Origin: Ostreococcus lucimarinus
Taxonomy: Eukaryota
NCBI GenBank assembly: GCA_000092065.1
Contig: CP000598.1
Length of the DNA stretch: 64,000 bases
Direction: 5' to 3' (one strand)
The translations under genes and the position numbers were made by a program. Of the stretch, positions 1,366 through 53,988 are shown in pieces (the first letter of the stretch is position 1; every line of letters begins with the position of its first letter). The notes under the pieces were generated by a model. The model was not told where the DNA came from. It did not search any database and saw nothing but the letters and a program-made list of their open reading frames with translations.

Positions 1366-1838
1366 CCGTCCGCGGTCGTTCGCGTCGACATAGTTCAAGT
1401 GGTACCCTTGGACGACGGGCCCACCCGTGCGCACCCACGGGTGGGTGAAGTGCGTTTCCGTGGCGCGCCGTCGCCGTTCGGTCCTTCGCGGGCGACCGTA
1501 GCGCAACCGGGCGATCTCCGTGCGGGCGGCGCGACGCGACGCCGGTGCACGCATCGCAAGGGGCACACGCCGGGGGCACGGCGCCATTCGCGGCGAACGG
1601 TACGCCACCACACACGTTCGCAGCGGCGGACGGCATGCGTGGGCGGGTTGGAGGCAACGTTGTATTGAAAATTGCGTACAGCACTGTTGGGCAGACCGGC
1701 TCGTTGAAGCAGCATACGGATCTACGAGCGAAAGCATTTTCTCCGTCGAATATCATAGGGAAACAGCATGATAGATCAGTTGCACGGTCGAATCACAGTG
1801 CTCGAGCATCCTTCAGTTATCATACGTTGAAGGTGAAA

Positions 1839-10018: not shown

Positions 10019-10227
10019 TAGTAAGAGTAATAAAAATAAACTTTTTTTTGTTTGAGTTGGGGCACCCCAACATGATAAAACCGCACATCGCGGCGAGCCG
10101 CGCGACGACGATCACTTCGGTCACATTTCCAGTCAGTGATTCTCGTCGTGTGATTCATCGTGTTTGACGTCGACGTTGATGTACCACATGTAAGATCTCT
10201 TCAGAACCAATCGTGTGAGTGAAGTGT

Positions 10228-10725
10228 TCAGGCCAAGTCGCGTAACTCATCTAGCGTAAATTGATACTTGTCGAGACTGCGCTTTGAAGGCAGCGTGCCA
10301 CGCGCTCGAGCATTCTTGAGGCACGTCTTACGCAGTATTCTTTTCGCGTGCTGCTTGTAATAATTGAGTTGTCTGTAGTTACCATCGCCGCCGTCACGCT
10401 TCGGCGTATATTGGGCTCTGCTGTAGGCTTGACTCTCGTCCACGTTCTCGTGACACGCGTGTTTCTGGCTGCGTCCAGCAGCTCGGGAGTTGAATAAGCC
10501 GTCGCGCTTCTCTCTCATGTATGCACTTTTACGTTGATGGAGCTCTCCAGCTGGAATGTCCTTTTCGAGAACTCTCACGTCCGCGTCGCCAAACGTGAAG
10601 ATTGGATGTCGTGCGTATTTATGCGAGGCAAGGCGCGCTCTGAGCGAACCTGTCGTCGATCCGATGTACGTTTTGTCACATTTCGCATTATCGCTAAACA
10701 TTTCGTACACGCACCCCGTAGGCAT
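10228..10725 (-). CDS. GIY-YIG family endonuclease (165 aa).
   Basis: N-terminal 'GCVYEMF...(11 aa)...TYIGSTTGSLRARLASH' fits the GIY-(10-11)-YIG spacing with the conserved Arg. A downstream acidic/Asn region follows. Identical copy at 22162..22659. Confidence 0.7.
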   Translation of the reverse strand: MPTGCVYEMFSDNAKCDKTYIGSTTGSLRARLASHKYARHPIFTFGDADVRVLEKDIPAGELHQRKSAYMREKRDGLFNSRAAGRSQKHACHENVDESQAYSRAQYTPKRDGGDGNYRQLNYYKQHAKRILRKTCLKNARARGTLPSKRSLDKYQFTLDELRDLA

Positions 10726-11150
10726 TTGTCCTGGTTACCTATCCATCCCTAAGAAAATATTGTTGCCTCCTCCTGCGGTTTGCAGTCACATTCGAGAGAC
10801 CATAGGTACTCGTGTCGCTGCGTGGGGTGCAAGGTCCGGGGTGTAGATATCGAACCGCCTGATTTCACACCTGGACGTTCGTGATCCGACGAGACCTGAC
10901 GAAATGACGAACTTGTTTTGTCGTCCCCAAATTCGTCAGCCCGTCGTTCGGTCACACTTTGTGTGTACCAATGATGAAAATGACGAAATGTTAAAATATT
11001 TTAATGTTTATTTTTATTTTAGATCTATGACAAGCAACAGTGTAGACCTTTATGAAAACAGTTCGTCATTCGTCATTTCGTCAGGATCCAAACCATGGTC
11101 TTTTCGGTGTCTTGTTGAGTCTTCATATTGCAAATGTACGAATCACAAAA

Positions 11151-11726
11151 TTAGTATGAACACCAGACGACCGCCGGCGCGAGCTCCGTCTCCCCCGTGT
11201 ACCCATTGTTCTTCAGCCACTCGAAGCACCCGTCGCGGTCAATTTCCCAATAGACGCCCTTCTCGTCCCTACCTTGCCTCAGGTGGTCCTCTTCCATTGG
11301 GATCCTGTGGCCCTTTTCCTTCTTGAAGAAGTCCTTGAGCTTATTGCCGACCTTCGTCGCGCTATCTTGTCCACGCGCAGCCGCTGGCAACCACGTCTGG
11401 TATTCGATGAAGATGTCACTGTTGCGGATTTTATTTCCAACCCACTTCTCAGGGAATTCAACAGTGACGCAATGCTCAAACCATCGAGTGAACTTGGGCA
11501 TGCAGCCACGCTTCATTTCCGAATACGCGTCGGTCGTAGGTCTCGTGCGCTCCACATGATAACCGGTACGGAGAAGTTTATATTTATTAATTAAAGACTC
11601 GCGCGTGTTGGCGCTAAATGATTTTATTGCTGCCGAGAGACTCAAGTTTGGCCGTCGTTTGAGTCGCATCGATGGGTCGCGCCCGCCGATATAACGCCGG
11701 CGTTTCGGACACGATCTTGAAAACAA
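11151..11726 (-). CDS. Hypothetical protein (191 aa), part of the duplicated block.
   Basis: Compositionally normal ORF, identical (1 substitution) at 23093..23668. No family recognised. Confidence 0.45.
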   Translation of the reverse strand: MFSRSCPKRRRYIGGRDPSMRLKRRPNLSLSAAIKSFSANTRESLINKYKLLRTGYHVERTRPTTDAYSEMKRGCMPKFTRWFEHCVTVEFPEKWVGNKIRNSDIFIEYQTWLPAAARGQDSATKVGNKLKDFFKKEKGHRIPMEEDHLRQGRDEKGVYWEIDRDGCFEWLKNNGYTGETELAPAVVWCSY

Positions 11727-11746
11727 GCACTGGTTGACTTGATTGA

Positions 11747-14272: not shown

Positions 14273-14404
14273 CGTCGCGCGTTGAAATGCGGCGACGACA
14301 AGTGGCGACGGTGACGCGATCTGCCCGCACGCAATTCAATTCCTTCGGGTCACCTTATCTTTTGGAGCCCCCGGAAACGCGACTGTTTACCAATACGATG
14401 GTTC

Positions 14405-14665
14405 CCGGGTATTGATTACTGGGCCTGTTGGCGCCCCGCGGGTGTGTGTGTGCCAGCCCGTAGGGTTTAAGGTTTAGGATCCGAAATATGGAGCCTCGCT
14501 ATTAAGCCGGGGATCCTCCGCGGGCACGCGCCCCCGCGGGCGTGTGTGTTTTCGCGGTCGGTCGGACGGGAAGCCTGTTGGCGCCCCACGGGTTTGTGTG
14601 TCGGTCCTTAGCGTTTGGGGTTTAGTATCGGACATACGGAGCCTCACTATTTAGCGGTATGACCA
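14405..14665. repeat. Tandem about 150-bp repeats containing degenerate TTTAGGG-type telomere-like units ('ggtttaggatc', 'gggtttaaggtttagg') and 'gcctgttggcgccccgcgggt'. Related array at 17465-17640.
   Basis: Two successive units can be aligned by eye (14420-14530 vs 14570-14660). Shares 'ggcgccccgcgggtttgtgtg..agggtttagg..atcggacatatggagcctcac' with 17520-17640. Confidence 0.65.
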
Positions 14666-21832: not shown

Positions 21833-22161
21833 ATCCGCCAACCGAACGCCAGAATTGTTATGTTACGCTCGATGATAACATGGTTGGGTTGGGGCAAATG
21901 CCCACAAATCAGCGTCAGGCGAAGGAAGACAGGTGCGTCTGCAAATTCCAAATTCTCGGCAGAACAAGTTCGTCGACTGGAAGAGCTCGGCCGGTTTGGA
22001 GACAAACCCGCCATATTGGAAGAGCACTTCGCTGCCTGAGGGTACAGAAGATGTAGCTAATCAGAAGCGTGCGACCGTTAAGACCTTGGGGATTCGACTC
22101 GCTTAAGATTTCGGCACCCTCGCTTAAGATTTCTCCAGAACGAATCGTGTGAGTGAAGTGG

Positions 22162-22659
22162 TCAAGCCAAGCCACGCAACTCATCTACCGTAAATTGATA
22201 CTTGTCGAGACTGCGCTTCGAAGGCAGCGTGCCGCGCGCTCGAGCATTCTTGAGGCACGTCTTACGCAGTATTCTTTTCGCTTGCTGCTTGTAATAACTG
22301 AGTTGTCTGTAGTTACCATCGCCGCCGACCCGCTTCGGCGTATATTGAGCTCTGCTGTAGGCCGGACTCCCGTCCACGTTCTCGTGGCACGCGTGTTTCT
22401 GGCTGCGTCCAGCAACTCGGGAGTTGAATAAGCCGTCGCGCTTCTCTCTCATGTAGGCACTTTTACGTTGATGGAGCTCTCCAGCTGGAATGTCCTTTTC
22501 GAGAACTCTCACGTCCGCGTCGCCAAACTTGAAGATTGGATGTCGTGCGTATTTATGCGAGGCAAGGCGCGCTCTGAGCGAACCTGTCGTCGATCCGATG
22601 TACGTCTTGTTACATTTCGCATTATCGCTAAACATTTCGTACACGCATCCCGACGGCAT
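22162..22659 (-). CDS. GIY-YIG family endonuclease, second copy.
   Basis: Near-identical to 10228..10725, with a few substitutions (for example D/N, T/K). Confidence 0.7.
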   Translation of the reverse strand: MPSGCVYEMFSDNAKCNKTYIGSTTGSLRARLASHKYARHPIFKFGDADVRVLEKDIPAGELHQRKSAYMREKRDGLFNSRVAGRSQKHACHENVDGSPAYSRAQYTPKRVGGDGNYRQLSYYKQQAKRILRKTCLKNARARGTLPSKRSLDKYQFTVDELRGLA

Positions 22660-23092
22660 TTGTCCTGATTACCTATCCATCCCTAAGAAAATATTGTTGC
22701 CAAAAGTGCTCCTCCTGTGGTTTGCAGTCACATTCGAGAGACCATAGGTACTCGTGTCGCTGCGTGGGGTGCAAGGTCCGGGGTGTAGATATCGAACCGC
22801 CTGATTTCACACCTGGACGTTCGTGATCCGACGAGACCTGACGAAATGACGAACTTGTTTTGTCGTCCCCAAATTCGTCAGCCCGTCGTTCGGTCACACT
22901 TTGTGTGTACCAATGATGAAAATGACGAAATGTTAAAATATTTTAATGTTTATTTTTATTTTAGATCTATGACAAGCAACAGTGTAGACCTTTATGAAAA
23001 CAGTTCGTCATTCGTCATTTCGTCAGGATCCAAACCATGGTCTTTTCGGTGTCTTGTTGAGTCTTCATATTGCAAATGTACGAATCACAAAA

Positions 23093-23668
23093 TTAGTATG
23101 AACACCAGACGACCGCCGGCGCGAGCTCCGTCTCCCCCGTGTACCCATTGTTCTTCAGCCACTCGAAGCACCCGTCGCGGTCAATTTCCCAATAGACGCC
23201 CTTCTCGTCCCTACCTTGCCTCAGGTGGTCCTCTTCCATTGGGATCCTGTGGCCCTTTTCCTTCTTGAAGAAGTCCTTGAGCTTATTGCCGACCTTCGTC
23301 GCGCTATCTTGGCCACGCGCAGCCGCTGGCAACCACGCCTGGTATTCGATGAAGATGTCACTGTTGCGGATTTTATTTCCAACCCACTTCTCAGGGAATT
23401 CAACAGTGACGCAATGCTCAAACCATCGAGTGAACTTGGGCATGCATCCACGCTTCATTTCCGAATACGCGTCGGTCGTAGGTCTCGTGCGCTCCACATG
23501 ATAACCGGTACGGAGAAGTTTATATTTATTAATTAAAGACTCGCGCGTGTTGGCGCTAAATGATTTTATTGCTGCCGAGAGACTCAAGTTTGGCCGTCGT
23601 TTGAGTCGCATCGATGGGTCGCGCCCGCCGATATAACGCCGGCGTTTCGGACACGATCTTGAAAACAA
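23093..23668 (-). CDS. Hypothetical protein (191 aa), second copy.
   Basis: Identical to 11151..11726 except T/A at one residue. Confidence 0.45.
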   Translation of the reverse strand: MFSRSCPKRRRYIGGRDPSMRLKRRPNLSLSAAIKSFSANTRESLINKYKLLRTGYHVERTRPTTDAYSEMKRGCMPKFTRWFEHCVTVEFPEKWVGNKIRNSDIFIEYQAWLPAAARGQDSATKVGNKLKDFFKKEKGHRIPMEEDHLRQGRDEKGVYWEIDRDGCFEWLKNNGYTGETELAPAVVWCSY

Positions 23669-23688
23669 GCACTGGTTGACTTGATTGA

Positions 23689-26220
23689 TTAGGAAACCTT
23701 ATCCGTGCCTTTTACGCTGAGCCCGGTCATGGACGGCTTCGTCGGCATGGTGAACGCGGTGTAGTCCGCCGCCGTGGGCACCGTGATGCTCGTGTCGTAC
23801 GACATCCCGGAGCACGCCGACGCATCGGCGGGAGCAAGCATTTCGACACCACTTTCGAGTTTCAAGACGTACCGGTCGCCAGTCGATGGTTGTTTGAACG
23901 TGGTGCCATCGGGGATCAGGACATCCGGACGGCGATGGTAACCATTGTTGTCGTCGCACTCCTCGTTGCCATACTGGTCGACCTCGGGCGCCGCGCGCGA
24001 ACCAGTCATCGGATTGAAGCAAATGAACGGCGCGTCGCCCAACCAACCGCCTTCGTAACGCACGTTGAGATTCACCCCGGAGTAGTCGGTACCGGATGGA
24101 GAGCGCAGCAACACGGCGTCCGTGGGTATCTTGCCTTGAAGCTGGAGAGGCGCATCCATGAACTTCTTTGACGCGGAGTCCGAAGGATCTTCGAGCCACG
24201 CCATGCCCTCCCAATTGCTTGAGCTCCACTCGTAGTGCACATCCAATTTGTTGGGTTCCTCGCAAACGTCGGTAGTGGCGGTGCAACTCAAAGTGTCGAG
24301 GTTCGCAGGTGTAGCTTCGAAGAGAACCATATGAACTTCTCCCGAGTCAAAGAATGAGTTGGTTGGGTCCATTACGACTTCAGCGCCGAGGGTGCCGGAA
24401 ACGTCTTCCTTCAACGAGCCGGTATCTTTGTCGAAGACGTACTTTTTATAAGTGCTTCGAGCGTCGTTGTATCCGTTCGGCGAGCCGTAGAACTGGCTGT
24501 CGTGACTGCTCGCACTCGATAGCTTCGTCTGGTCGATACACCGCTCGCCGCACGTGAGTGCGAGGTGGCTGCTGAGCGACCCAGGGGGGACGGTTTGCGC
24601 GTCAGACACTTTGAAGTGCGTCAGGTTAAGCAAACTCGCAGAGCCTCGGCCGAAGATGCTTCCCCAGCAGCGTATGATTTGGTTGTCAATGTCAGCCATC
24701 GTGAGCGCACGCGGAGTCGTGATTGAGTTCGTGTTCAGCGATCCACCGTTCCAAGTTCGCTTCGACGACAACACGAGTGCGTTCGCGTCGGAGTCATACC
24801 TGAACTTGACCTCAACTTCTGCAGCGTTAGTGTCATCCCAGAACCAGCCTGTGATCGTCGCCCCTTGGTAGTCGCTTGCGCTTCGCACCGTCGCCGTGAA
24901 CTTGTACAACACCCCGCGTGAGACTTTGAGCCTCTTGTTCACGTTCAGTATCGGATCATCCCAATCGACAATTTCCTCTACTACGTTCCCGTCGGTGAAC
25001 GCGGTTTGAGCGATAGTCTTCTCGGCGGTACTGAGCGCGGTGTCGGAAATGTAGTCGTAATCGGAAATGTAGAGATTGCCCGGATAGTGCAGATCAGCAT
25101 TATACGTCTTGCCGTCGCTGCCTGTAGCCTGAAGATGCACGTAGCTTTGAAGGTTCACCTTCGCCCCGTTGCTGTCGTACGCGCCGTAGCGCTCACCGAA
25201 GAACGATCTGTTCTCGAGTTCATCGCAGAATGACTGCCCGTACGCCTTCGTCTTGACGAGCGTAGCGGTAGTCACCAATTGACCCGCTTGTGTCGAACCA
25301 TTATCAAAGTCGATGGTCTGGAAAGAGGCCTTCGTGATGTCGTTTTCTGCGCGCGATTTAGCACCCGCGGTGAATGAATTGCTGCCTCGTGTCACCTCTT
25401 CCCACCACGTGACCCCGGTCGCCGTGCAATCCGAATCCGCGTCGGTGGTTTCGCACTCGCGACGAACCACACCTTTGATGCGTTGGGACGCGGTCGAGCC
25501 AGTCGGCGATTGGTACGTAAAGGTAAAGTTTTTCACCAAGATTTTGTCAGACTTGATGGCGACGTCATCGCGCTTGACGATCATTTCCGTGTCGATGTTC
25601 GGCATTTCTGGGGTATCGCTGAGGGCTACCCAGACGTTCGTCTTGAAATCACGGGTATCGCTCGCGTCGTCGATGTCTGGGCCCGTGGCGTTGACGACCC
25701 AACGGTACGTAACCTTACCCTTGATTCGGTCGCCGTCGCTGTTGTCACAGTGGAAAGGATCGATCTCAGCGATGTATGGGCCAGTGTTCAGGTTCGCCGT
25801 CCAGTTCACCGAGGCGACGTAGCAAAGAACCATGTTTGGTATCTGGAAAATTTCGGTACTTACAGCGTCGACGAACGTCTCCGCCGGCGGCGCCGTGGCG
25901 TAGTCGGACGTCGAAGAGAACGAAGACACTTCGAGAGGCGTCACCTCGACGAGCGAACGACCATCGATTCGAGACGAACCAGAAGACGTCGTCGAAACAC
26001 CCTCTGACGGGATCATGGTGACTTTACGCGGCGTCAACGCCGCCTTGAGCGCGTTCGTCTTCGCCGCGCCCGACAGCCCGCTGACGGTGGTCGGGGTCGG
26101 GGCCGGGGCCGGGGCCGGGGTCGCGTCGTCATCCCTGAGCCCGATGCCGAGGCCGGTGCCAAGGGCGACCACCACGGCGGCGACACCAACGATCGCGATC
26201 GCAACGCCACGTCTCACCAT
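23689..26220 (-). CDS. Secreted or membrane-anchored hypothetical protein (843 aa), second copy.
   Basis: Identical to 11747..14272 except PAPAPAPTPT vs PAPAPTPT. Confidence 0.6.
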   Translation of the reverse strand: MVRRGVAIAIVGVAAVVVALGTGLGIGLRDDDATPAPAPAPTPTTVSGLSGAAKTNALKAALTPRKVTMIPSEGVSTTSSGSSRIDGRSLVEVTPLEVSSFSSTSDYATAPPAETFVDAVSTEIFQIPNMVLCYVASVNWTANLNTGPYIAEIDPFHCDNSDGDRIKGKVTYRWVVNATGPDIDDASDTRDFKTNVWVALSDTPEMPNIDTEMIVKRDDVAIKSDKILVKNFTFTYQSPTGSTASQRIKGVVRRECETTDADSDCTATGVTWWEEVTRGSNSFTAGAKSRAENDITKASFQTIDFDNGSTQAGQLVTTATLVKTKAYGQSFCDELENRSFFGERYGAYDSNGAKVNLQSYVHLQATGSDGKTYNADLHYPGNLYISDYDYISDTALSTAEKTIAQTAFTDGNVVEEIVDWDDPILNVNKRLKVSRGVLYKFTATVRSASDYQGATITGWFWDDTNAAEVEVKFRYDSDANALVLSSKRTWNGGSLNTNSITTPRALTMADIDNQIIRCWGSIFGRGSASLLNLTHFKVSDAQTVPPGSLSSHLALTCGERCIDQTKLSSASSHDSQFYGSPNGYNDARSTYKKYVFDKDTGSLKEDVSGTLGAEVVMDPTNSFFDSGEVHMVLFEATPANLDTLSCTATTDVCEEPNKLDVHYEWSSSNWEGMAWLEDPSDSASKKFMDAPLQLQGKIPTDAVLLRSPSGTDYSGVNLNVRYEGGWLGDAPFICFNPMTGSRAAPEVDQYGNEECDDNNGYHRRPDVLIPDGTTFKQPSTGDRYVLKLESGVEMLAPADASACSGMSYDTSITVPTAADYTAFTMPTKPSMTGLSVKGTDKVS

Positions 26221-27354
26221 CGTCGCGCGTTGAAATGCGGCGACGACAAGTGGCGACGGTGACGCGATCTGCCCGCACGCAATTCAATTCCTTCGGGTCA
26301 CCTTATCTTTTGGAGCCCCGGAGATGCGACTGTTTACCAATACGATGGTTCCCTTTTTTCGGTCGCGAAAGCGCGCGGTCGCCGGGTCAACCAACACCTT
26401 CATCTCCGGGGGGGATCGGAGATTGTTTTTTACGGTCGCGCGCGCGGTCGCCGCGGACGCCCCCGCCCTCGTCGACGCCGCGCTGACTGTCGCGCGCTGA
26501 CTGACACGCGCTGACCGACGCGCGCGCGATCGAACGCCGCGAGTGGGGAAAGGCGAACGCGCGACGTCGTCGCGCGCGCCCCCGCGCGTCCCGGACCGAA
26601 CCGCGCGTCGTCGTCGTCGCCGTCGCCGTCGCGCGCGTACGCTTCGGACCGCGAAAATCGTTTTTCGTCGCGGGGGGACTGCGGTGCGGGTCGTCTCACA
26701 CTTCGGGACGCCGACGATGGTGTCGTCCGGCGACGCCGACGTCGACGACGCGGTCGAACGACGCCATCGGCGCGGTCGCGGTCGCGCCGTTCGCGATCTT
26801 CTGCCGTCGTCCTCGGCGGCGCGCGCGAACACCGTCCCGCCGTTTGAAGCAACCGGTCGAGGCGCGCTCCCGAGGTGGTTTTGCAAGAGCTGTCGGAAAG
26901 CGCTCGACGTGTTTCGTGATTTCGACGGGGAGCTGAAGACGTGTCGACTGTGTTTGCGCGCGCGCAAGAAAGACGCGAAACGCAAACGCGCGCTACGGCG
27001 GGCGGACGCGAAAAGGTCGGGCGACGGCGACGGTAAAAAAGGCGCGGCTTCGTAGAGAAGCCGAACGCAGGGAACGACGACGAGTCGCGGATGCGCGCGA
27101 AACGATCGATCTTTGATTCGACACGCCTTCGGTATAGTAGTGTGTTTTGCTCTGTAGCCTCGCGTGTTGTAACTACCGTTGTACATTTACATCAATGCGT
27201 CGTCGCGTTCGCGGCGATTTTACGTCGTCGTTCGTTCGCGACGCTTCGTTGGACATGGCGCTTCGACACAGAAGAATCCGACGCGCGCACAGTCCGTGGT
27301 GTCGCGCGCACGTCATCGCACACGTCTCATTTCTTATTTCTCCGCTCCAACTCG

Positions 27355-27990
27355 CTATCCTTCTGTCATAAAGCACACCCGGTCCGCGTCCGGGACGACG
27401 TCCTTCTCGTACTCGACGTTCGCGCAGTACATGTGTATTCGAAACAGCGCGCACCCCGTGCCGCACATGCCCGCGTGCACGTGATCGCCTCGAAAAAATA
27501 CGACGGCGCCGTTCGGCACGGGCACGAAGTCCGTTGCCTTGGTCGCGTTCATGGGTATCGGCTTCGACACGATCATCGAGATCTGCTTATGGTCGGAACA
27601 CTTTCGACCGTCGAGATCCGTGTGCCAGTCTTGGCGCTTCGTCTTGCTCTCGCCCTTCGGGGAGTGGCAATAGATGACGCTCGCGCCGCGTCGGTCGCCG
27701 CTCTCCTTCAACCCGCTCAAGAGCCACCCCTTGCGCGACGCCCGCGCGCTTCAGCGCGGCGCCGCAGTACGGATGGAACCGACGCGAGGTCTCGGGCGCT
27801 TCCCCGCGCGCGTTCACGACGTGCGTCCAGCGACTCTTCGTCCACGCCCCGCCCTTCGCTTCGCGCGCGTCGGTCGAGGGTTGGCGTCGATGATTTCTCG
27901 ACGGATCGTCTTCATCCGTGCGTCCGTGAGGCACCGCTCGAACACGGCGTAGCGCTCTTTGGACGGATCGAACATGGCCGCGCCGTGTGA
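27355..27990 (-). CDS. 2OG-Fe(II) oxygenase, phytanoyl-CoA dioxygenase (PhyH)-like, apparently split over two or more frames (introns or frameshift). The C-terminal exon at 27355..27720 is clear.
   Basis: 'WHTDLD' (HxD) ... 'VPVPNGAVVFFRGDHVHAG' (distal His) in ORF 27355..27720. A PhyH-like N-terminal stretch 'MFDPSKERYAVFERCLTDARMKTIRREIIDANP' lies in another frame at about 27890-27990. Confidence 0.4.
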
Positions 27991-28344
27991 GGTGCACTGT
28001 TTCCCCTTGATCTCCGCCGCGCTCGCTCCCGCCGCGCGCGCGTGTCCAGACCCACGGCGTACGCGAGACGGCGCGTCGTCGCCGCGCTCGTCGGCTTCCA
28101 CGCGTTCGGGAACCTGACGTGTTTGGGTAACCCACGAACGGCGCGCGCGGCGAGCGCCTCCAGGCGCGCGCGCCGCGCGGGAACTCTTCACCGTGCGCGC
28201 GTTTCCACTCGGCGAACACGCCGAGGGCGAGCGCGACTACGCGTCGACGGTGCGTTCCGCGAGTTCGCACCCGCGCCGGCGACGCCTGATCGTCTCGGCG
28301 CGCGATCGTCGCGGCATGGGACGCGTTGGAGGGCGGGGGTCGGG

Positions 28345-28425
28345 ACGCGTCGCGGTTTCCCGCGCCGCGCGTCGCGCGTCGTCGGGTGCTGCGGGGACCG
28401 ACCCCGCGGTTTTGTGCGAAATGAA
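28345..28425. repeat. About 85-bp GC-rich dispersed repeat, copy 2 (see 797-880).
   Basis: Direct alignment. Confidence 0.7.
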
Positions 28426-28914
28426 ATCGTTCGTCTAACCGTACTGCTGCGAGTAGTCTCGGTCGTTCAAGTAAAGGTGGCGCGCCCAGTGCTGGTCGGC
28501 CGGAAACACCACGCGCGAGGGGAGGGGCGGCTGAAAATTCGGTTTCTGAGGTATTCTCGAGCGCGTGGTTGTCCCTCCCGAGCGCGCGTTTCGCCGTGGA
28601 ATCGTCCTTCGTCGAGTGCTCGTCGAAGCGTGACTCACCGTCGTCCGCTGACGTGGCGTCACGAGTCGATACGCGATTTCGCGGGTCACTCTCCCCGATT
28701 CGTGAACCGCCAAACGTAAATTAATATCTTTGCGCGCGAAAAAAGATCTTTTGACAGCTGTCAAAAAGCCGTTCGAATGCGCGAACGCTCGAATGGCGCC
28801 GCGCCAGCAGTTCGCCGCGCGCGCGACGAGGCGACGAGTCGATCGACCCGATTCATTGATTTCCAAACATCTTTGATTCGCGATAAAACGCTCGCTCGCT
28901 CGCTCGCTCGCGCC

Positions 28915-31488
28915 ATGAGTGAACCTACGGAAACGAAAACGGCGGACCCGTTGAATTGGAAGAATGAGGAAAACGTCAAGCGCTTCGTTCGACCGAGTCG
29001 CTGGTTGTCTCTCGATATCGCGGGCTACCCGGTGCGTGACACATTTCTGTCGATCGAATTTCGCTCGCGCGTCCTGCGCGAAGCGCGCGCGTAGGACGCG
29101 TTTGGGTCGAATGCACCGCGGCCCGATTTTCGAAATTATTTCGCGCGCGATGACACCTTCGTCACGAGTATCGTCGCTTCTGGCGACGTGCGCGCGCAAA
29201 GACAACGAACTGGCAAATACAAAATCCATCATCGACTGACTCGCGAATCCCGCGCGACGTAGATGTTGCGCATCAACTGGGTCTCCGCCGCGCTCGCGTC
29301 CTCCCTGCTCTGGGGCTTCATCATCTGGGTGCTCGTCGACGAGACGGGATCGTCAAGCGAAGTGACGCGTTGGACGAAGTGGATCACGAGTAACTTTACG
29401 TGGCTGTACGTCGTCACGCAGGATGTCTGGTTTATCTTCATCTTGTATCTTTTGGGTACAAAGTACAAAGACGTGAAACTCGGTCGCGACGACGAAGAAC
29501 CCGCCTTTGACTATTACGAATGGTTTTCCATGATGTTTGCGTGCGGTATCGGCGTTGGTCTGTACACTTTCAGCGTCATGGAACCCATCAGCTACTACCG
29601 CGGCGTCGTGTCAAAGCTTCCGATCGTCAACGACGATCAGCGCGCGCAGCAGGCGATCACGCTCACGCTCTTCCACTGGGGCCTTCACGGTTGGATTCCG
29701 TACGTCCTCGTCGCGATGACTTTGGGCGTCGTGTGCTACCGTCACGGACGTCCGATGACTATCCGCTCCGCGTTTTATCCGCTCTTCGGCGAAAATATCA
29801 ACGGTCTCTTCGGCGACGCGATCGACGCGTTGTCCATCGCGACGACGACGTTCGGCGTGTGCACGTCCCTCGGGCTCGGCGTCACGACGATCGCGTCTAC
29901 GATGAACCGCTTGAACAGCGATGTGGATCCAAACGATGACGCCACCAAGATCCTAATCATCTGGTTGATCACTGCCGTCGCATGTACGTCGGTCATTTTG
30001 GGTTTGAAGAACGGCATCAGAAGGCTTTCCAAGATTACGTTCTCCATCGGTCTCATCTTGCTCTTTGGAATCATCGTCGCGGACAACCCTTGGTTCTTAC
30101 TCAACTCTTTCGTGCAATCGATGGGTCATTACGTGCAATGGGTCACGCAGCTCGGCTGGGACACGGACACGTGGCCCGCGTCCGAAGCCATCATGCGCGA
30201 CACGGGCGCTTGGCACTACCTCGCTTGGGGCGCCAAGGGTGAGAGCGATGCGATCGCGCGGACGCTTTCGACGCGTGGCGCCACCGCCCTGACCGACACT
30301 GAGCTTAACACCATGTGGGGCGTGCGAACCGACGACGGTTTCATGAACACGTGGACCCTCTTCTATTGGGGGTGGTGGATTTCGTGGGCCCCGTTCGTCG
30401 GCATGTTCATCGCCAGGATCTCGCGTGGTAGAACCGTCGGTGAAGTCATCAAGGGTGCATTCATCGCGCCTATTTTGTTTGGTTTCTTTTACCTCACCGT
30501 TTTGGGCTCCCTCGGAATCAAAATGGAGCGCATCGCCGAGCTCGCGTTGACGACGGCGCCGGCGGACGTCGACTGGCGAAGCGGCGACGTCAAGTGCACC
30601 ACCCTCGGGTACGCCGCTGACGGGACGCCGACCACCGCCGGATCGATTCAGCTCGCGAAAGAGGGCTACTACGCTCTGTCGTGCCGTCCGACATCGTCGC
30701 ACATCCTTGACATCGTTGAGCCTTACGGCAAATTATCGACGCTCTTTCAAGCGATGATTCTCATCGCCATCATCCTGTACTTTATCACGTCGTCGGATTC
30801 TGGATCGTACGTCGACGACTTGATCTCCGCCATGGGCTACGAAAATCCGCCAGTGTTGCAAAAGGTTTACTGGGCGTGCACCGAAGGCGCGCTCGCGCAA
30901 GCTTTGGTGACTTCCGGCGGCTTGAAAGTGGTGCAAGGCGTCTCCATCGTCTGCGGTTTGCCGTTTACGTTTGCTCTCAACTTTATGGTCGTCTCTCTCT
31001 GGCGCGCGCTGAAGGATGAATTCAACGACGAGGCGCAACAAAAAACTCGCAAGGGGTTCAATACGTGCATGCTGGACGTCCTCGAAGGGTACGAGCCGGA
31101 AACCGCAGGCGCGAACGCGCCGGATCGCAAAACGCGCGTCGTCGCCGCATTGAAAAATTTCATCTACCCGTTCGACGCGATTCGCAAGGCGAAGATCGCC
31201 GTGGGGACGGATGAAAAATTTGCCTCCATCAACGCCGCCGTGGTCACTGGCGTGCTGTGGACTGCGATCGGTCTCCTCGCGTCCACGAAAGCCGGCGCGG
31301 GCGCGCACTCCGTGGCGTGGCTCTTCTACCTCATCTTGATTTTCTGCATCGCGAACATTCGCCGAGAAGTTCGCGCGTCCAGAAACATTCTCGGTAACAT
31401 CATGGAGGATTACACCGCCGCTGCTTTGTATCCGCTCGCGCTCGCGCAGATGGAACACGAGGCTGAATCCGACCCGAAGCTGGCGTAG
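28915..31488 (+). CDS. BCCT-family (betaine/carnitine/choline) transporter, about 780 aa. Exon 1 is 28915..29031 (MSEPTETKTADPLNWKNEENVKRFVRPSRWLSLDIAGYP), intron 29032..29262 (GTGCGT...AG), exon 2 is 29263..31488.
   Basis: Exon 2 carries the BCCT signature region 'WFSMMFACGIGVGLYTFSVMEPISYY' and 12 hydrophobic segments. Exon 1 ends in phase 0 at a GTGCGT donor, and the AG acceptor immediately precedes the in-frame exon 2. A (CTCG)n microsatellite (28891-28913) sits just 5' of the ATG. Confidence 0.65.
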
Positions 31489-31844: not shown

Positions 31845-32471
31845 TTACTTTACGAAACCGTCGTCGTCCGCGCGCCGCGTCCGCGCGTTCGCGTCGTTCA
31901 TCTTGAAAACACCCGCGAGATACCGATAGATGAATCCAGAGTACGGTACCACCGCTCGCCGGTCTCTCGCTCGCGACGCGTCGCCGACGGCGGTGGACGT
32001 CGTGCGACGTTCTGCGTCGGGAACGCGCATGGCCTCCGACGCGCCCGGGACGTAGTTTTCGTCGCGCGTCGTCTTCGTGTCACCGCCACGTCCGACCGAT
32101 TTCTTTGACGCCTTCACCGACTTGAGGAAATGCTTTTGCGCGTGCGATCTGATTTGCGCCGCCGTCCTCGTCCCGACGTGTGTTTCGATCCGTTTCCAGT
32201 CGCGATCGTACAACTCGAGCGCGCGTAAAAACTTGTCGTGTTCGATCCTCGTCCACGGCGCGCGCGTCTTCGTTCGCACGTACGGTTTTCGCGGTTTCTT
32301 TGAACGCATCAGCGGCGCGCGCGCCGTGGTGGCTCTCGCCCGCGCGGCTTCGTTCTCGCTCGCGATTTTTCGTACGGCGGCGTCGACGAGCGCCCGCACC
32401 GAGAGCGACGACGACGACGACGGCGACGTCGTCGCGTGTTTTTCGCTGTTTGGGCGGTCGTCGTTCGTCAT
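31845..32471 (-). CDS. Single-repeat Myb (SHAQKYF/REVEILLE-CCA1-type) DNA-binding protein (208 aa).
   Basis: '[48 protein letters not shown]' matches the Myb/SANT SHAQK[YH]F class. Confidence 0.7.
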
Positions 32472-34730: not shown

Positions 34731-34928
34731 GCGATCGCGGACTCGCGATGCGTACGTCGACGCGTTCGGCGCCGCGACGTCGTCGACTCGTCGGCGGACG
34801 CGCGCGCGTGTCCTTCGTCGCGCGCTGTGCAGGGCCGGAGTTTTTCACGCCCTCGGCTGCGTCAAACAAAAACCCGTCCTCCGAAACACACCGGCGTCCT
34901 CACACCGCCGCGCTCGCGGCGTCGCCTC

Positions 34929-37266
34929 GATGCGTCTGCGCGTCGCGTCGCTCTTCTCCGGCATCGGCGGTCTCGATCTCGGGCTCGAGCGCGCCGGACA
35001 CGACGTGGTGTTGCGCGTCGAGCGCGACGCGCACTGTCGCGAGTTGCTTCGACGGCAATACCCCGACGGCGCGCTCATGGACGACGTCGCCGCCGTCATG
35101 CCGCGCGATCTCGACGGCGTCGATCTGCTCGCCGCCGGGTTCCCGTGCAACGATTGCTCGTTCGAAAACGCGGCGCGACCGGGTTTGGAACACGGCCGCG
35201 ACACGCGTCTCGTGCGACACGTCTTTCGCCTGCTTCGCGAGAGACGCGTGGAGTGGGTGCTCCTGGAGAACGTCGTCGGGCTTTTGCGTTGGCACAGGCG
35301 GCGTCGTCGGAACGAGCGCCAGGGAGAGAACACGTCGCGGTCGCGCGATGCGCGTGCGCGGCCGCCGGCGATCGATCACATCGTCACCGAATTCGAAAAA
35401 CTCGGCTACCGCTGGGCGTATCGCGTGGTCGATTTGCTCGCCTTTGGCGTGCCGCACAAGCGCCGACGCGTCTTCATCGTCGCGAGCGCGCACGGCGACC
35501 CGCGAGACGTGCTTCTGAGTCAAGACTCGCAGTGTCAAGGCCGGTGCGAGACTTTCGCGGCGCACGCGCGCGTCCACCGCCGTCGGTGTTACGACTGCTT
35601 CAACGCGCCGCCGCGCGACGCCGCGACGGTCGAAGCCGTGTCCATCGACGTCGGCGAGAACAGACGACCGCCTCTGCGCGACATTTGCCAGTGCTTGACG
35701 ACGTCGAACGGGCGGCGGACGTGCGTGGTGACGCGCGCGGCGAACGACGCGCGCGAGACGTCGACGACGCGCGCGCTCGCCGTCGAGGACGCCGAACGCC
35801 TGATGGGATTCGAGCCGGGGTACACCGCGTCGTGCTACCCGATCGCCGACGCCAACGGGCGCGCGCCGATGAGTTTCAACGTCGACGCGCAAACGCGCAA
35901 ACGGTTCGCGTTGTTGGGGCTCGCGTGCGCGGTGCCTCAGAGTGCGTGGCTCGGCGAGCGCCTGCGAAACCCGTACGCCGTCAAGTTTCCGTACGCCGCG
36001 CTGTGCGCGCCGTTCCGCCGCGCGTGTCCGGGCGGGGACGACGACGACCAGGAAGGCGCGTGGCCGCTCGCAGCGTACAACGTATTCGAGCTCGACGACG
36101 CGGACGAGCCGAGATGGAAAAGCCGCCGACGCGCGCCGAAGACGCTCTCGGAATCCCCCGTCGTGCGCGCGTTCGTGCCGCTGGGTGAGTTTTTGAAGTT
36201 TCAACGTCGCGCGCGGGACGTCGATCCCGAAACTTTGCGCACGTACGCGCGGCGACTCCGCGCGAGCGGCCACGACGACGTCGACGAGCTCGTGCGTCTC
36301 GCGTTGCTCGGCGACGAGCGACGCGATGGCAAGCGTCGGCGGATCGCGGCGCCGCACGTCGGTACTACCGTTCGTCGCGCCGAATCCGTCTGGTCGTCGA
36401 GCGACGACGAACGCGATGATTCCCGAGACGACGATGCGATGCCGACGTTCGGCGCGCGCGCGTGGGTGCGGTGGCGAGGCAAACGCGGCGACGTGGCGAC
36501 GCGTTGGCCGTGTCTCGTGCTCGACGCGGGCGAAGATGGGGTGCGAGGCGTGACGACGCATCGCCACGTGGTATTTTTCGACGCCGCGCGTTCGCACGCG
36601 CGCGTCAGATCGACGGATATCGTCGGCCGATTTGGTGGAGACGACGACGACGGCGACAATATATCAGAACGCGCGGACATCGTCGGCGCGATCGAGCGCG
36701 CGAGGGTGTGGAAACGCGACGATCGAAATCACGAGTACGACCCGATCGCGTGGTCGTTTCGCGAACCGACGGCGTGTCTCGAGTGCGCAACGTGTCGCGA
36801 AGACGCGCCGCCCGCGGTGTCGACGCCCGATCGCAGTCGCGGCGGCAACGACGGTGTGTTGTCGCGAAGTCTTCGATCGAGCTTTGCGTCGGATTCAAAA
36901 ACATCATCATCATCGAAGTGTCCGCAAGCGACGGAAATAATTCCTCGCGCGCGCCTCGGGCACGTCGGCGCGACGCTCGCGTTGCGCCGCGGCGACGCCG
37001 TCGGACGAAGACTGCGCGTGTTTTGGCCCATCGAAAACGCGTTTTTCGCGGGCACGATCGCGGCGTTCGACAAACAAACGTACACGTTTCGCGTCGATTA
37101 CGACGACGGCGACGTCGAGGTGGCGTTCAAGCCGTGGATGGAGTCGGTGTGGCCGCTGAGGGGTGAAGATGAGTTCGCGACGTGTGGGGTGAAAACCCCT
37201 CGTGCGATCACACCATTCAATCAAAACACGCCAGAAATCTGCGAAGCACCAAAGACTCACTTTTAA
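34929..37266 (+). CDS. DNA (cytosine-5) methyltransferase (about 779 aa) with C-terminal PWWP-like ('WVRWRGKRGDVATRWPCLV') and Tudor/Agenet-like ('FWPIENAFFAGTIAAFDKQTYTFRVDYDDGDVEV') modules.
   Basis: Motif I 'LFSGIGGLDLG', motif IV 'GFPCNDCSFENAARPG', 'ENVVGLL' (motif VI), later 'QLGNAV'-position block. Start set at the ATG (34929) immediately preceding motif I; the track ORF extends upstream through GC-rich in-frame sequence. The whole gene sits in a CpG-dense island. Confidence 0.7.
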
Positions 37267-48372: not shown

Positions 48373-49344
48373 CTACAACCCCTGGCAGAGCACTTGAGCA
48401 ACATGCCGCATGTGGCGAAATCGCATGTTCAAGAATAAATCGTCGGCGCAATCATGATTCAAACCTCTTGGGAGGTATTCAAAGCCCAACGAGGTGATAA
48501 AGTCGCGAAGTTCATGCTCGCCATGCTGATCAGCGTAGCCGGTAACCACTAGCTCCGGTTGAATCCAGACAACTCGTTTCGATAGCCAATGCCGAGCCCC
48601 TTTGATAATCTCTAAGTCATGGCCCTGTGCGTCAATCTTCAACATGTCGATATATTGGACGCGGCCACCTTGAACACCTAGAGACTCTGACTTTGGAACT
48701 GACACGGACCAAGGCAGAAGGGTAAAGAAATCATGAAGATTCCAAACAGGGACCTGAATTTCATTCTGCACGTCAAACTTGACCGGTTTGTGTAAGCTTG
48801 ATGTCCCTGGATCACCAGCGGTCGCGTAAAATGTCTGCAAGTGTAGAGGAGAAGAGCCCATCGCCACACAAGATAAAAAGTAGCGTTTGCCAACTAAGTC
48901 CAACGGCACACAGAGGTCTCCTGTGGAGCAAGCACAACCCTTCAGTATGTTCTTGCAACTTGTCGGATTAGGCTCAAACGCAAAAACTGTCAGCTGATCC
49001 GGATCGGAAGTGCTGCTGAACCATAAGGCGGAGTTTGGAGCGTTGTAAGACTCACCAATAGATATTTTCACACGCCGCGTATGCCTCGGCAGTGCAATTT
49101 TTCCACGCCGCAGGTGCACTGGAAGTAAGGCACGCGTGGCGTGACGAGTGCGCGAGATATCTTTGATACGTTCGGCCCCTACGAGTGGATCACTTTTTGG
49201 TTCTTCACAGCTACTCCCAAGTGAGTCGCTGTACGATTCAGTCACAGGAAGTCCGCGTGCTGACGCAAACGCAAGGAGTACGAGCGAACCCAGCGAACCG
49301 AGCAAACAGCCCGCAACCAACCTAAATTTCATACTGAATTTCAT
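48373..49344 (-). CDS. FkbM-family methyltransferase domain protein with N-terminal signal/anchor (about 324 aa).
   Basis: 'MLKIDAQGHDLEIIKGARHWL' matches the FkbM C-terminal block. Start placed at ATG 49344 preceding MKFSMKFRLVAGCLLGSLGSLVLLAFASA; an upstream in-frame ATG at about 49398 is an alternative. Confidence 0.55.
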   Translation of the reverse strand: MKFSMKFRLVAGCLLGSLGSLVLLAFASARGLPVTESYSDSLGSSCEEPKSDPLVGAERIKDISRTRHATRALLPVHLRRGKIALPRHTRRVKISIGESYNAPNSALWFSSTSDPDQLTVFAFEPNPTSCKNILKGCACSTGDLCVPLDLVGKRYFLSCVAMGSSPLHLQTFYATAGDPGTSSLHKPVKFDVQNEIQVPVWNLHDFFTLLPWSVSVPKSESLGVQGGRVQYIDMLKIDAQGHDLEIIKGARHWLSKRVVWIQPELVVTGYADQHGEHELRDFITSLGFEYLPRGLNHDCADDLFLNMRFRHMRHVAQVLCQGL

Positions 49345-50080
49345 TCTGACAGGGACTCGCACGTTCTCGTGTCGCTTAAAGCCCGTATTTTGCTCCATCT
49401 CTTCGCGGTCTAAATACTGTATAAAGTGGGTGTGTAGTACGCTCTTTTCCGTTCTTCGGCCTGGGTGTTCAGTATGCTGTTTCCGGTCTTCAGTTTCTTC
49501 ATCTCGACGGCTTCGGGGCGACCACTTTGGCCGGCGACGAGTTTGCCCTGTACCATAGGACATCGTGGCCGCACACAGCATTTCGAGGCCTATATATTAT
49601 AATATCTCTTGTTTTTGTCAGAGGCCTATTTCTCAGAAACATCGTGTCCTTATGCGAAAATGAGGTGGATTAAGAGATGCGAAATTCGAAAATAGAATCG
49701 GCGATTTATTCCGATAAGGGCCGTTTTTTCCCACATCGGAATGAATCGGGCCTTTGTATTCCGAAAAGATACTTGTCAAAATAGCGCGACTCGTCACGTG
49801 ACGAGTTAATTTTAGGGGGTCCTATTCCGACAACGCTATTCCGGCTATCTCTTTTGAAAAACTAGCGACGCGAAATGAAGACGCGCAGTCGCCCCACTAG
49901 TGCGCGTCACTTGTTGAACTCGTTCTTCACCGAACGGGGTTTTAAAGACGTACATGTGTCCTCAGGGAACCGCATGCGGATTGTCGTCGATCTCCTTTGA
50001 CCTCGGACGCTGAGGCCTCGGACCTTAAAGTCCCCGCTTCCGACGTAAAAAGTTCTGTCAGTGCGAGTTTTAGCCACGCT

Positions 50081-52743: not shown

Positions 52744-53988
52744 TCACTCTGGAAACAAGGTACGCGTTTTTCTTCTCCAGTGCTTCAAGATATCGGCAAT
52801 TGTGTTTGTGATGTTTGGGTCAGGAATCCACCCCGTCAGCTCTCGTATTTTCCTATTATCTGACAAAAGTATCTTCTCATCGTAAAGCCGCTCACGTGCA
52901 CCATCAAACAGCGTCGTGATGTCTGGTCTTGTTGACAGTGAAATCGCTGTGTCTAGGATGTCCTTCATTGAAAGTGCGATGCCACTACCGATGTTGTACG
53001 ACTCTCCAGGCTCTCCAAGGTCTACAAGTTTCGTTACCACTCGTGCAGAATCGCGGAGGTCAGTTATGTCCCTTTTTGTGGTAATGCGCCCATGTCTCAC
53101 CACTGGGCTTTGCAATCCGAGCTCGATCATTGCTATCTGCCGACAAAACTCTTGAGGTGCGAGACTCTCAGTCCCACCCGCTGAAACTTGGATAAAAAAT
53201 CGAGCGGTGACGACGTGCATGCCGTGGCTGTGCACATATTGCTGAGCAAGTAGGTCTGCTGCAACCTTGCTTACTCCATAAGGAGACACGGGCGCCAATG
53301 GTGCTTCTTCAGGTATGGCCCCTTCCCACGTATCAGCAGTTTTTCCATATTCTGTGCTTGAACCAGCCAGCAGAAAGCGCGTTTTGTTGGAGAGTCCTGC
53401 AAATCGCACTGCTTCTAGCATGTTGAAGGTGCCTTTGATGTTGGTATCTAAAGTCAGCTCAGCGGAGTCATATGAAACCCCGTTGATTGCTTGTGCAGCA
53501 AAATGGAAAATAACTGTTGGGCAGATTTCTGCGACCACCTGTTTGACACGAGTTCCGTCCAGAATGTCTCCACGAACGAGCTGTATGTTGTTCAATTCGC
53601 CTGCCAAATTTGACAGGTCAGATCGGTATCGCACAAGACCGTGAACCTCATACTTTCCTTCCTGTATCAACTGTTTCACAACGTAGCTGCCTATCATTCC
53701 AGACACACCTGTCACGAGAGCTCTTGGTCTTGCAGATAGAGCACTCAAGCAAGGCGTGTAATCTTTACTCTTTGCATTAAGATTTGTAGCAAAAGAGGAT
53801 TCCTCACGGTACATATGAGTTTTTGAAGGTTGAACATTGTATCGTGAAGTAACCGGGCTTGAAAGTCCTGATTTGAATTGCACAGCCTGATATGACGGAT
53901 GTAACACAACAGCTGCTAAAACAAACGATGAAACAGCCAATATTCGTGCAGTCTTTCCCAGCGTGTGCTTGAAGCGACTGTCGCGCAT
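52744..53988 (-). CDS. GDP-mannose 4,6-dehydratase-like short-chain dehydrogenase (GMD/Rmd family) with an N-terminal membrane anchor (414 aa).
   Basis: 'ALVTGVSGMIGSYVVKQLIQEGKYEVHGLVRYRS' (Rossmann plus GMD-type N-terminus), 'AGSSTEYGK' (catalytic S/T..Y...K region). Anchor ILAVSSFVLAAVVL about 60 aa before the Rossmann fold. Confidence 0.6.
   Translation of the reverse strand: MRDSRFKHTLGKTARILAVSSFVLAAVVLHPSYQAVQFKSGLSSPVTSRYNVQPSKTHMYREESSFATNLNAKSKDYTPCLSALSARPRALVTGVSGMIGSYVVKQLIQEGKYEVHGLVRYRSDLSNLAGELNNIQLVRGDILDGTRVKQVVAEICPTVIFHFAAQAINGVSYDSAELTLDTNIKGTFNMLEAVRFAGLSNKTRFLLAGSSTEYGKTADTWEGAIPEEAPLAPVSPYGVSKVAADLLAQQYVHSHGMHVVTARFFIQVSAGGTESLAPQEFCRQIAMIELGLQSPVVRHGRITTKRDITDLRDSARVVTKLVDLGEPGESYNIGSGIALSMKDILDTAISLSTRPDITTLFDGARERLYDEKILLSDNRKIRELTGWIPDPNITNTIADILKHWRRKTRTLFPE

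Follow-up and report, generated by a model that had tools for sequence, protein, structure and literature searches.

A Chlorophyte C5 DNA Methyltransferase with Putative C-Terminal Chromatin-Reader Modules in Ostreococcus lucimarinus: Architecture, Likely Bacterial Ancestry and Possible Function

Introduction

Among DNA methyltransferases (DNMTs) of the C5 type, those working on DNA or chromatin usually come with companion domains, which are not found in those acting on RNA (PMC12344493). In green algae, a lineage named ChloroDNMT was described in 2025, which is restricted to chlorophytes and charophytes and often contains a PWWP domain acquired independently of animal DNMT3; Ostreococcus tauri was counted with one member, the report giving counts and no accessions (PMC12344493). 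A chlorophyte-specific clade had been termed 'DNMT6-like' in 2023, in a survey that credits Ostreococcus lucimarinus with DNMT5 (XP_001417393), two other DNMT6-like proteins and 5-methylcytosine (5mC), and with neither DNMT1 nor DNMT3 (PMC10538959). DNMT5 maintains methylation in Cryptococcus neoformans (PMC10538959), and in Micromonas it correlates with heavy methylation of histone linkers according to the literature. The present analysis deals with a gene in a 64,000-nucleotide window of O. lucimarinus (contig CP000598.1 of assembly GCA_000092065.1; the window is the whole stretch of DNA analyzed, and all positions refer to it). Its product, which carries the database name 'predicted protein' (A4SA90 / XP_001422300.1, strain CCE9901), is almost certainly a chlorophyte-wide DNA methyltransferase fused to reader modules.

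This architecture is common to Chlorophyta and fits the published ChloroDNMT lineage, and hence it is not new; the gene is a correct re-discovery of a family that has already been named and whose domain annotations are already present in public databases. The papers on ChloroDNMT and DNMT6-like proteins discuss the PWWP domain only, and the single-cluster (mono-CXXC) zinc module, the Tudor domain of the type found in Arabidopsis RDM15, the four-cysteine insert and the Dcm/Vsr ancestry described below are absent there. As a whole, the protein is best explained as a CG methylase that is directed to chromatin, probably acts de novo and works beside the maintenance enzyme DNMT5, a reading to which we assign a probability of roughly 0.55.

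Catalytic Module and Its Bacterial Relatives

The open reading frame (ORF) on the plus strand is uninterrupted from the ATG at 34930 to the stop codon, both in this genome and in several environmental strains. This ATG is the first one in frame and lies at the place where the homologues start in the alignment, and no intron is necessary, as the protein is collinear with its homologues along the full length. An earlier sequence-only reading of the window had set the start one base too early (34929), while both the ORF and its end at 37266 proved real. Other ORFs overlap the gene in antisense or in other frames (e.g., 34900-36597, minus strand, 565 amino acids (aa)); they were taken as by-products of the 66% GC content.

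The N-terminal part of the protein matches the Pfam family DNA_methylase (PF00145, 3e-32) and the NCBIfam dcm model (TIGR00675, 113 bits against a cut-off of 100.65), both matches spanning only the N-terminal half of the profile (Pfam positions 2-165). Alignment to M.HhaI places motif I, which binds S-adenosylmethionine, at F9-S-G11-I-G13-G14 (FSGIGG, aa 9-14), motif II at E31, motif IV at G-F-P72-C73-N-D-C-S with Cys73 at the position of the catalytic nucleophile, and motif VI at E113-N114-V115. Motif VIII corresponds to H176-K-R178-R-R180, in which R178 and R180 are invariant, and the family alignment locates motif X at G330-L331 (G330-L-A-C-A-V-P), preceded by a DAERLMGF segment. Over 61 family members and 7 bacterial relatives, the catalytic-motif columns are invariant or nearly so; E113 and V115 do not vary within the family, N114 is present in 60/61 members, and all are invariant when aligned with the bacterial relatives. 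The sequence-only reading had described a catalytic core beginning at motif I and containing FSGIGG, PCNDCS and ENV, all of which are present in the M.HhaI alignment; in a careful alignment, ENV and the Cys of motif IV are both retained.

An AlphaFold (AF2) model built from the 61-sequence alignment has a mean predicted local distance difference test score (pLDDT) of 79, with values mostly >90 over aa 1-465. In Foldseek comparisons, approximately 390 columns of this model align to the whole chains of M.HaeIII, M.HhaI, DNMT2 and DNMT3A, with template modeling (TM) scores of 0.60-0.67 normalized to the target, and the match to whole M.HaeIII and M.HhaI chains indicates that both lobes of the fold are present. 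Judged from its motifs and fold, the protein is likely to be an active DNA methyltransferase.

Several segments distinguish the module from, or connect it to, its relatives. Motifs VI and VIII are separated by a low-complexity, Arg-rich insert that is longest in O. lucimarinus, is reduced or missing in most homologues, and is predicted to be disordered (pLDDT <50 at aa 127-138). The four cysteines of the insert following motif VIII are kept in 57-61 of the 61 family members, and this insert is presumed to be a zinc knuckle that opens the target-recognition region; bacterial relatives do not have it and contain a different segment at this place (GFYWTEG...PTLKGGSTIGIPSPPA). The extension after motif X is confidently folded (pLDDT 85-95), and since its ~120 residues are common to bacterial Dcm-like relatives of ~440 aa, it belongs to the ancestral catalytic module and is not a eukaryotic addition.

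Outside green algae, the best matches are bacterial-type Dcm-like proteins of ~440 aa, which show 34-38% identity across aa 1-465; two Dcm-like relatives, one of them from Mycolicibacterium, are fused to the mismatch endonuclease Vsr. PADLOC models of type II methyltransferases match at up to 2e-49. Among the sequences of solved structures, M.HhaI (5e-12), M.HaeIII (8e-9) and DNMT3A (9e-4) were detected, and no eukaryotic DNMT besides DNMT3A was listed at E <= 0.01. Sequence comparison thus points to a descent of the catalytic module from a Vsr-associated type II C5 methyltransferase of the bacterial Dcm-like kind; the core had already been called 'bacterial-looking', and the identity over aa 1-465 bears this out and sharpens it to the Dcm/Vsr type. 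Enzymes resembling the Mycolicibacterium Dcm-Vsr fusion (P0115) share GFPC.D.S, the RWAYRVVD motif, GDPRDVLL and the post-motif X extension with the algal protein. Bacterial Dcm-like enzymes differ from it in having another target-recognition segment, in lacking the four-Cys insert as well as PWWP, CXXC and Tudor domains, and in being paired with or fused to Vsr. The four-Cys insert, the new target-recognition segment and the C-terminal PWWP, one-zinc CXXC and Tudor modules appear from the same comparison to be green-algal additions. A viral origin was considered and rejected, as the nearest relatives on viral contigs are phage-like and, with 30-33% identity, no closer than the bacterial ones.

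C-Terminal Reader Modules

The last of the folded modules is a Tudor domain. Its match to PF21743 is marginal (28.3 bits against a cut-off of 27.2); a phmmer search connects it to PDB entry 7DE9 (7de9_A) at 1e-7, and the same structure is the top Foldseek match (TM 0.90, root-mean-square deviation 0.9 Å, 32% identity). 7DE9 is the Tudor domain of Arabidopsis RDM15 (PDS5C) bound to monomethylated lysine 4 of histone H3 (H3K4me1), in which W616, Y623 and Y641 form the cage, D643 and D645 hold the monomethylammonium group, and E647 contacts H3R2 (PMC8184781). W699, F706, Y724, D726, D728 and E730 of the algal protein align with RDM15 W616, Y623, Y641, D643, D645 and E647, respectively, so that all six recognition positions are kept within the aligned stretch, with Phe (F706) in place of Y623; the equivalent of Q654 falls outside this stretch. 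Family-wide, these Tudor positions are highly conserved (W in 49/49, Y or F in 49/51, Y in 45/50 and D in 47/51). The algal domain therefore resembles the Tudor domains of Arabidopsis RDM15/PDS5C and plant MSH6 in its PF21743 subtype, aromatic cage, both Asp residues and H3R2-contacting Glu, and differs in its fusion partner, which is a DNA methyltransferase in the alga and a cohesin regulator or mismatch-repair protein in the plants. By analogy with RDM15, the chances that it would read H3K4me1 in the same manner are about even.

Upstream of the Tudor domain lies the mono-CXXC module, for which PF15626 gives a strong match (2e-21, 76 bits against a cut-off of 20). It consists of C616-x2-C619-x2-C622 and a distal C664, the third and fourth Cys being parted by a disordered Ser/Arg-rich insert (aa 633-660, pLDDT <50). 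The four Cys are kept in 54-55 of about 57 family members; PF15626 itself matches merely 2/28 homologues and is thus a narrow model. The canonical two-cluster zf-CXXC family (PF02008) has no match at E <= 1, one CxxCxxC cluster with a distal Cys being found instead, and CpG binding by this module is hence not assumed. A literature search for 'mono-CXXC' found nothing.

The third module is a PWWP-like domain that is degenerate in O. lucimarinus. PF00855 matches 22/28 homologues, with no match on the O. lucimarinus protein even at E <= 1. A profile of the region that includes the O. lucimarinus sequence finds the PWWP domains of DNMT3B (2e-11) and NSD2 (4e-11) in PDB, as well as those of BRPF1, MSH6, NSD3 and DNMT3A. 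In the AF2 model, the region forms five strands (aa 509-567) followed by helices (pLDDT 53-87), and a separate model of aa 500-750 matches the MSH6 PWWP domain (TM 0.63) and also BRPF1, BRPF2, ZMYND11, NSD3 and DNMT3B in Foldseek. W526-P527 and F549-F550 are retained; position 525, aromatic (W, Y or F) in the family, is occupied by Arg, and a shorter loop connects strands 2 and 3. W239 and W263 of DNMT3B, which we take to be cage residues, correspond to W526 and F549 in the alignment, and the position corresponding to F236 is non-aromatic in Mamiellales.

The reader cassette appears to be a modular unit. A profile search over 1.8 billion representatives showed that the RDM15-type Tudor is widespread in chromatin proteins, with bromodomain-GATA, SAND and FAR1 among its partners. 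In addition, PWWP and CXXC-Tudor occur in environmental proteins of ~1,000-1,150 aa (P0082, P0252 and P0362) with no detectable methyltransferase domain. The occurrence of the cassette with other partners or without a methyltransferase implies that it is reusable. In the literature searched, including two preprints on the evolution of MSH6/PDS5 Tudor domains, no mention was found of a DNMT that carries a Tudor of the RDM15 type.

These results agree with the eukaryotic chromatin-reader architecture proposed in the sequence-only reading, as histone-reader modules do lie C-terminal of the core. Its Tudor/Agenet-like segment is supported by the PF21743 score just above threshold, the 7DE9 matches and the retained recognition residues; its PWWP-like segment holds at the family level (22/28 homologues, profile values of ~1e-11) and is degenerate in the protein at hand. 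The mono-CXXC module and the four-Cys insert had been missed, and the layout differs slightly: the catalytic module extends to ~aa 465 and the reader part covers ~aa 506-745. All features are listed in Table 1.

Table 1. Coordinates of the methyltransferase gene and its parts in the window, with the basis of each assignment.
Feature	Residues	Position	Strand	Basis
Complete coding sequence	778 aa + stop	34930..37266	+	Identical to XP_001422300.1 / ABP00617.1 / UniProt A4SA90
C5 DNA methyltransferase core	aa 1-345	34930..35964	+	PF00145, TIGR00675, M.HhaI alignment, Foldseek
Arg-rich low-complexity insert, motifs VI-VIII	~aa 120-145	35287..35364	+	Alignment, pLDDT
Four-Cys insert after motif VIII	C202, C206, C220, C223	35527..35607	+	Family alignment
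Extension after motif X	aa 346-465	35965..36324	+	W378-P379, P410, L418 et al.; bacterial alignment
Degenerate PWWP-like domain	~aa 506-597	36445..36720	+	Family profile, AF2, Foldseek
Mono-CXXC zinc module	aa 612-670	36763..36939	+	PF15626
Tudor domain, RDM15/PDS5C/MSH6 (PTM/DIR17-like) type	aa 689-745	36994..37164	+	PF21743, phmmer, Foldseek
Strain-specific C-terminal tail	aa 742-778	37153..37266	+	Allele comparison, pLDDT

The tail behind the Tudor domain is disordered (pLDDT <50 at aa 746-778), and its 37 codons, the last of the gene, have a GC content of 51%. A 98%-identical environmental allele diverges fully after codon 741 (in environmental contig L005 from about position 5224) and ends 4 codons later, and the DNA downstream is unrelated. 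The tail is a read-through into a neighboring low-GC segment past a strain-specific rearrangement breakpoint (37153, codon 741/742). The conserved part of the coding sequence has its 3' end precisely at this breakpoint.

Relationship to Known DNMT Families

The order methyltransferase-PWWP-CXXC-Tudor was observed in Ostreococcus, Bathycoccus, Cymbomonas, Dunaliella, Haematococcus, Chlorella, Auxenochlorella, Trebouxia, Coccomyxa and others. No named close homologue comes from outside the chlorophytes, and transcripts of relatives are present in MMETSP data. The O. lucimarinus protein and its O. tauri orthologue (XP_003084365, 'C-5 cytosine methyltransferase') share 57-59% identity. Likeness to ChloroDNMT lies in the restriction to green algae and in the frequent fusion of the C5 DNMT to a PWWP domain, as shown by the PF00855 matches; the Chlorophyta DNMT6-like clade (PMC10538959) is possibly a matching system as well.

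Compared with animal DNMT3A and DNMT3B, the algal protein likewise combines an enzyme of the de novo type with a PWWP reader, and the fold comparison gives a target TM of about 0.66. The stretch PCND.S..N..R.GL..G..RL....RLL in motifs IV-V presumably resembles DNMT3A, which we regard as a lead only. The readers of the animal enzymes are N-terminal, whereas those of the algal protein are C-terminal, and the Pfam scan of the latter revealed no ADD, PHD or like domain; furthermore, the sequence similarity to DNMT3A is weak in comparison with that to M.HhaI (9e-4 vs 5e-12). The RFTS and BAH domains of DNMT1 and the C-terminal SNF2 ATPase of DNMT5 were not detected by Pfam at E <= 1, and neither DNMT1 nor DNMT5 was among the solved sequences listed at E <= 0.01. 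By these sequence criteria the protein is not a DNMT3, DNMT1 or DNMT5, and with three companion modules it is also unlike the stand-alone DNMT2 and DNMT6. With regard to the clade classification proposed in the sequence-only reading, domains and scores set the protein apart from DNMT1/3/5 and stand-alone DNMT2/6, and the assignment to ChloroDNMT is a probable one made by description.

Possible Function and Alternative Explanations

The proposed function can be formulated as a series of steps. The Tudor domain would bind methylated H3K4, with H3K4me1, the mark read by Arabidopsis RDM15/PDS5C, as the most likely form, and the degenerate PWWP domain and the zinc module may contribute contacts to DNA or the nucleosome. 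The tethered enzyme would then methylate cytosines in nearby, probably linker, DNA, and ChloroDNMT would in this manner establish a CG methylation pattern that is propagated by DNMT5. Since no DNMT1 or DNMT3 has been reported and DNMT5 is the maintenance enzyme in Cryptococcus, the protein is the best candidate for establishing CG methylation. The de novo CG role, taken by itself, is a tentative assignment with the odds somewhat against it.

A number of observations weigh against a chromatin-targeted de novo CG methylase. The usual Gln of motif VIII is replaced by His176, at a position that is variable within the family, and the Asn of motif X by Leu331, where core chlorophytes retain GN and Mamiellales vary. 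The PWWP segment is absent from the O. tauri orthologue and from another close relative; degenerate in O. lucimarinus and deleted in O. tauri, this domain is thus not essential for targeting in Ostreococcus. Whether the target context is CG or another one is not readable from the sequence. The dN/dS comparison with the 98%-identical environmental allele (27 differences, dS 0.02, omega about 0.45) involves too little divergence to be informative. To our knowledge, H3K4me1 has not been mapped in Ostreococcus, and no enzymatic, binding or genetic data on any family member were found in the searched literature. In addition, we infer the membership in ChloroDNMT from the matching description and the taxon counts, not from an accession or a tree. 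XP_001422300 is also absent from the O. lucimarinus row of the DNMT table in PMC10538959; as it is missing there beside DNMT5 and the two DNMT6-like proteins, O. lucimarinus may encode at least four DNMT-domain proteins.

It is conceivable, with a low probability, that the enzyme is a defence-linked or foreign-DNA methylase, serving either for self-marking as in restriction-modification systems or for the silencing of viral or foreign DNA, hence its residence on a small outlier chromosome (SOC). The gene is located on the SOC in both O. lucimarinus (chromosome 18) and O. tauri (chromosome 19), its core is of the type II restriction-modification kind according to PADLOC, and SOCs have been linked to virus resistance (PMC3491373) and 5mC to the silencing of viral insertions (PMC12344493). 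However, the orthologue on an O. mediterraneus-like contig lies among the housekeeping genes ChlH, PPR, RbcX and MPC, and that of Bathycoccus is found on a 642-kb contig and not on the 146-kb SOC of this alga. SOC residence is thus a feature of the O. tauri/O. lucimarinus lineage and not of the family, and an ancestral SOC position was rejected. The family is conserved across Chlorophyta, which mostly have no such chromosome, the neighboring genes revealed neither a restriction partner nor Vsr, and the nearest viral relatives are the distant phage-like proteins mentioned above.

An equally low probability is given to an active DNA methylase with another job, i.e., maintenance, non-CG or sequence-specific methylation. 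The bacterial relatives are sequence-specific enzymes, and the target-recognition segment is specific to the family, with no predictable specificity. On the other hand, DNMT5 already supplies maintenance where examined, and the bisulfite re-analysis of O. lucimarinus is confined to CpG and thus silent on other contexts.

An RNA (tRNA) methyltransferase like DNMT2 and probably DNMT6 is very improbable: a chlorophyte clade has been labeled 'DNMT6-like' (PMC10538959) and DNMT2 structures are among the fold matches, but no DNMT2 chain is listed by sequence at E <= 0.01, and PWWP, CXXC and Tudor point to chromatin, RNA-acting DNMTs being consistently devoid of companion domains (PMC12344493). Just as little can be said for a catalytically dead, DNMT3L-like regulatory subunit or a gene decaying on a fast-evolving chromosome, which the degenerate PWWP domain, the strain-specific tail with its breakpoint at codon 741 and the low-complexity inserts might suggest, but which is contradicted by catalytic motif residues that are intact and invariant family-wide, by the uninterrupted ORF in several environmental strains, and by the conservation of Tudor residues and zinc ligands.

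Genomic Context

The record that contains the gene has a length of 149,386 bp, which agrees with chromosome 18, the SOC of O. lucimarinus, described as 149 kb long with 53% GC and rich in sugar-metabolism and methylation enzymes (PMC3491373). The other genes of the window are in line with this assignment, as they encode FkbM methyltransferases, glycosyltransferases of the GT17 and STELLO types, a transporter of nucleotide sugars, two GDP-mannose-dehydratase-like proteins and one UDP-glucose dehydrogenase. The O. tauri orthologue is found on CAID01000019.2 (record coordinates 153206-155083), which is chromosome 19, the SOC of that species, and has a GC content of ~64% as compared with 45-51% in its downstream neighbors. 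The ORFs directly upstream of the O. tauri and O. lucimarinus orthologues show no similarity.

Elsewhere in the window, a direct segmental duplication of 4.2 kb was detected (10191-14406 and 22125-26353, 98.8% identity), the copies of which carry ORFs of 841 and 843 aa on the minus strand (11747-14272 and 23689-26220, respectively) with no Pfam match. At the low-GC end of the window, a 2,607-aa ORF (1545-9368, plus strand) is built from DUF285 repeats, of which there are at least 13 (Pfam E = 0); this repeat family was originally reported from Mycoplasma.

CpG Composition and Methylation Compartments

The gene contains 205 CpG per kb, with an observed/expected ratio (o/e) of 1.87 and a GC content of 66%. 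Similar CpG o/e values were obtained for 26.3-29.2 kb (1.81) and 31.5-37.3 kb (1.84), as compared with 1.30 and 78 CpG per kb at 45-62 kb; with the exception of one 1-kb bin, CpG o/e in the window is never below about 1. The conserved coding sequence has 472 CpG, versus 400 +/- 5 after shuffling of synonymous codons (z about 13), and hence amino-acid composition and codon usage do not explain the excess, which arises because NNC/GNN codon boundaries are over-represented 1.45-fold.

The same boundary ratio was calculated for other genes. Among those of standard composition, it is 1.35 for BCCT and 1.41 for Myb in the window, 1.31 for ChlH and 1.20 for the PPR gene on the O. mediterraneus-like contig, and 1.50 for the O. 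tauri DNMT orthologue; ordinary Ostreococcus genes have a CpG o/e of 1.5-1.9 and a boundary excess of 1.2-1.7-fold. Low-GC SOC genes lack the excess, namely FkbM at 48 kb (0.89), GDP-mannose dehydratase at 53 kb (0.86) and a 591-aa ORF of the O. tauri SOC (0.97). Two compositional gene classes are thus present (example genes at 29263-31488, 31845-32471, 48373-49581 and 52744-53988), and the contrast in boundary CpG suggests that the low-GC genes differ from the others in their origin or mutational history. A gene-specific CpG island was rejected, as housekeeping genes show an equal excess. Within the low-GC chromosome, the region of ~26.3-37.15 kb forms a block whose composition is standard for Ostreococcus, and it is the low-GC genes that are the outliers. 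The 'extreme CpG island' of the sequence-only reading is therefore correct in its numbers (o/e 1.81-1.87) and not in its special status, ordinary genes being alike; the contrast it had drawn with the sugar genes is real, since low-GC sugar-metabolism genes show no excess (0.86-0.97). Overlapping ORFs of 265-300 aa occur on both strands at 26284-29232, and the three that were scanned have no Pfam match.

The sequence-only reading had also asked which compartments of this genome are methylated. A re-analysis of existing bisulfite data reported CpG methylation of 22.2% for the standard regions of O. lucimarinus, 19.2% for its BOC1 and 16.2% for its SOC1 (bioRxiv 10.1101/2025.04.21.649811), by which this question is already answered at the compartment level.

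Implications for DNA Methylation in Green Algae

Mamiellales have been reported with dense CG methylation and no DNMT1 or DNMT3, and DNMT5 explains how this methylation is maintained and not how it is established. A conserved methyltransferase that is tethered to histone readers is an obvious candidate for the establishment step, and one that could be tested genetically in O. tauri. The details added here, i.e., the Tudor residues, the Dcm/Vsr ancestry, the four-Cys insert and the SOC location in two species, are offered as hypotheses for specialists and not as a novel type of system.

The most specific form of the proposal, namely that ChloroDNMT is the missing de novo CG enzyme of Mamiellales and other green algae, which is recruited through Tudor and H3K4me1 and seeds a linker pattern copied by DNMT5, is speculative and somewhat less probable than the de novo role as such. 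If it were true, it would represent a third independent coupling of histone H3 to DNA methylation, after DNMT3-PWWP/ADD in animals and RNA-directed DNA methylation (RdDM) with RDM15 in plants, with an enzyme of the bacterial Dcm/Vsr type as its basis. In the lineage of O. tauri and O. lucimarinus, moreover, the gene would have relocated to the hypervariable antiviral chromosome and would be in the course of losing its PWWP domain.

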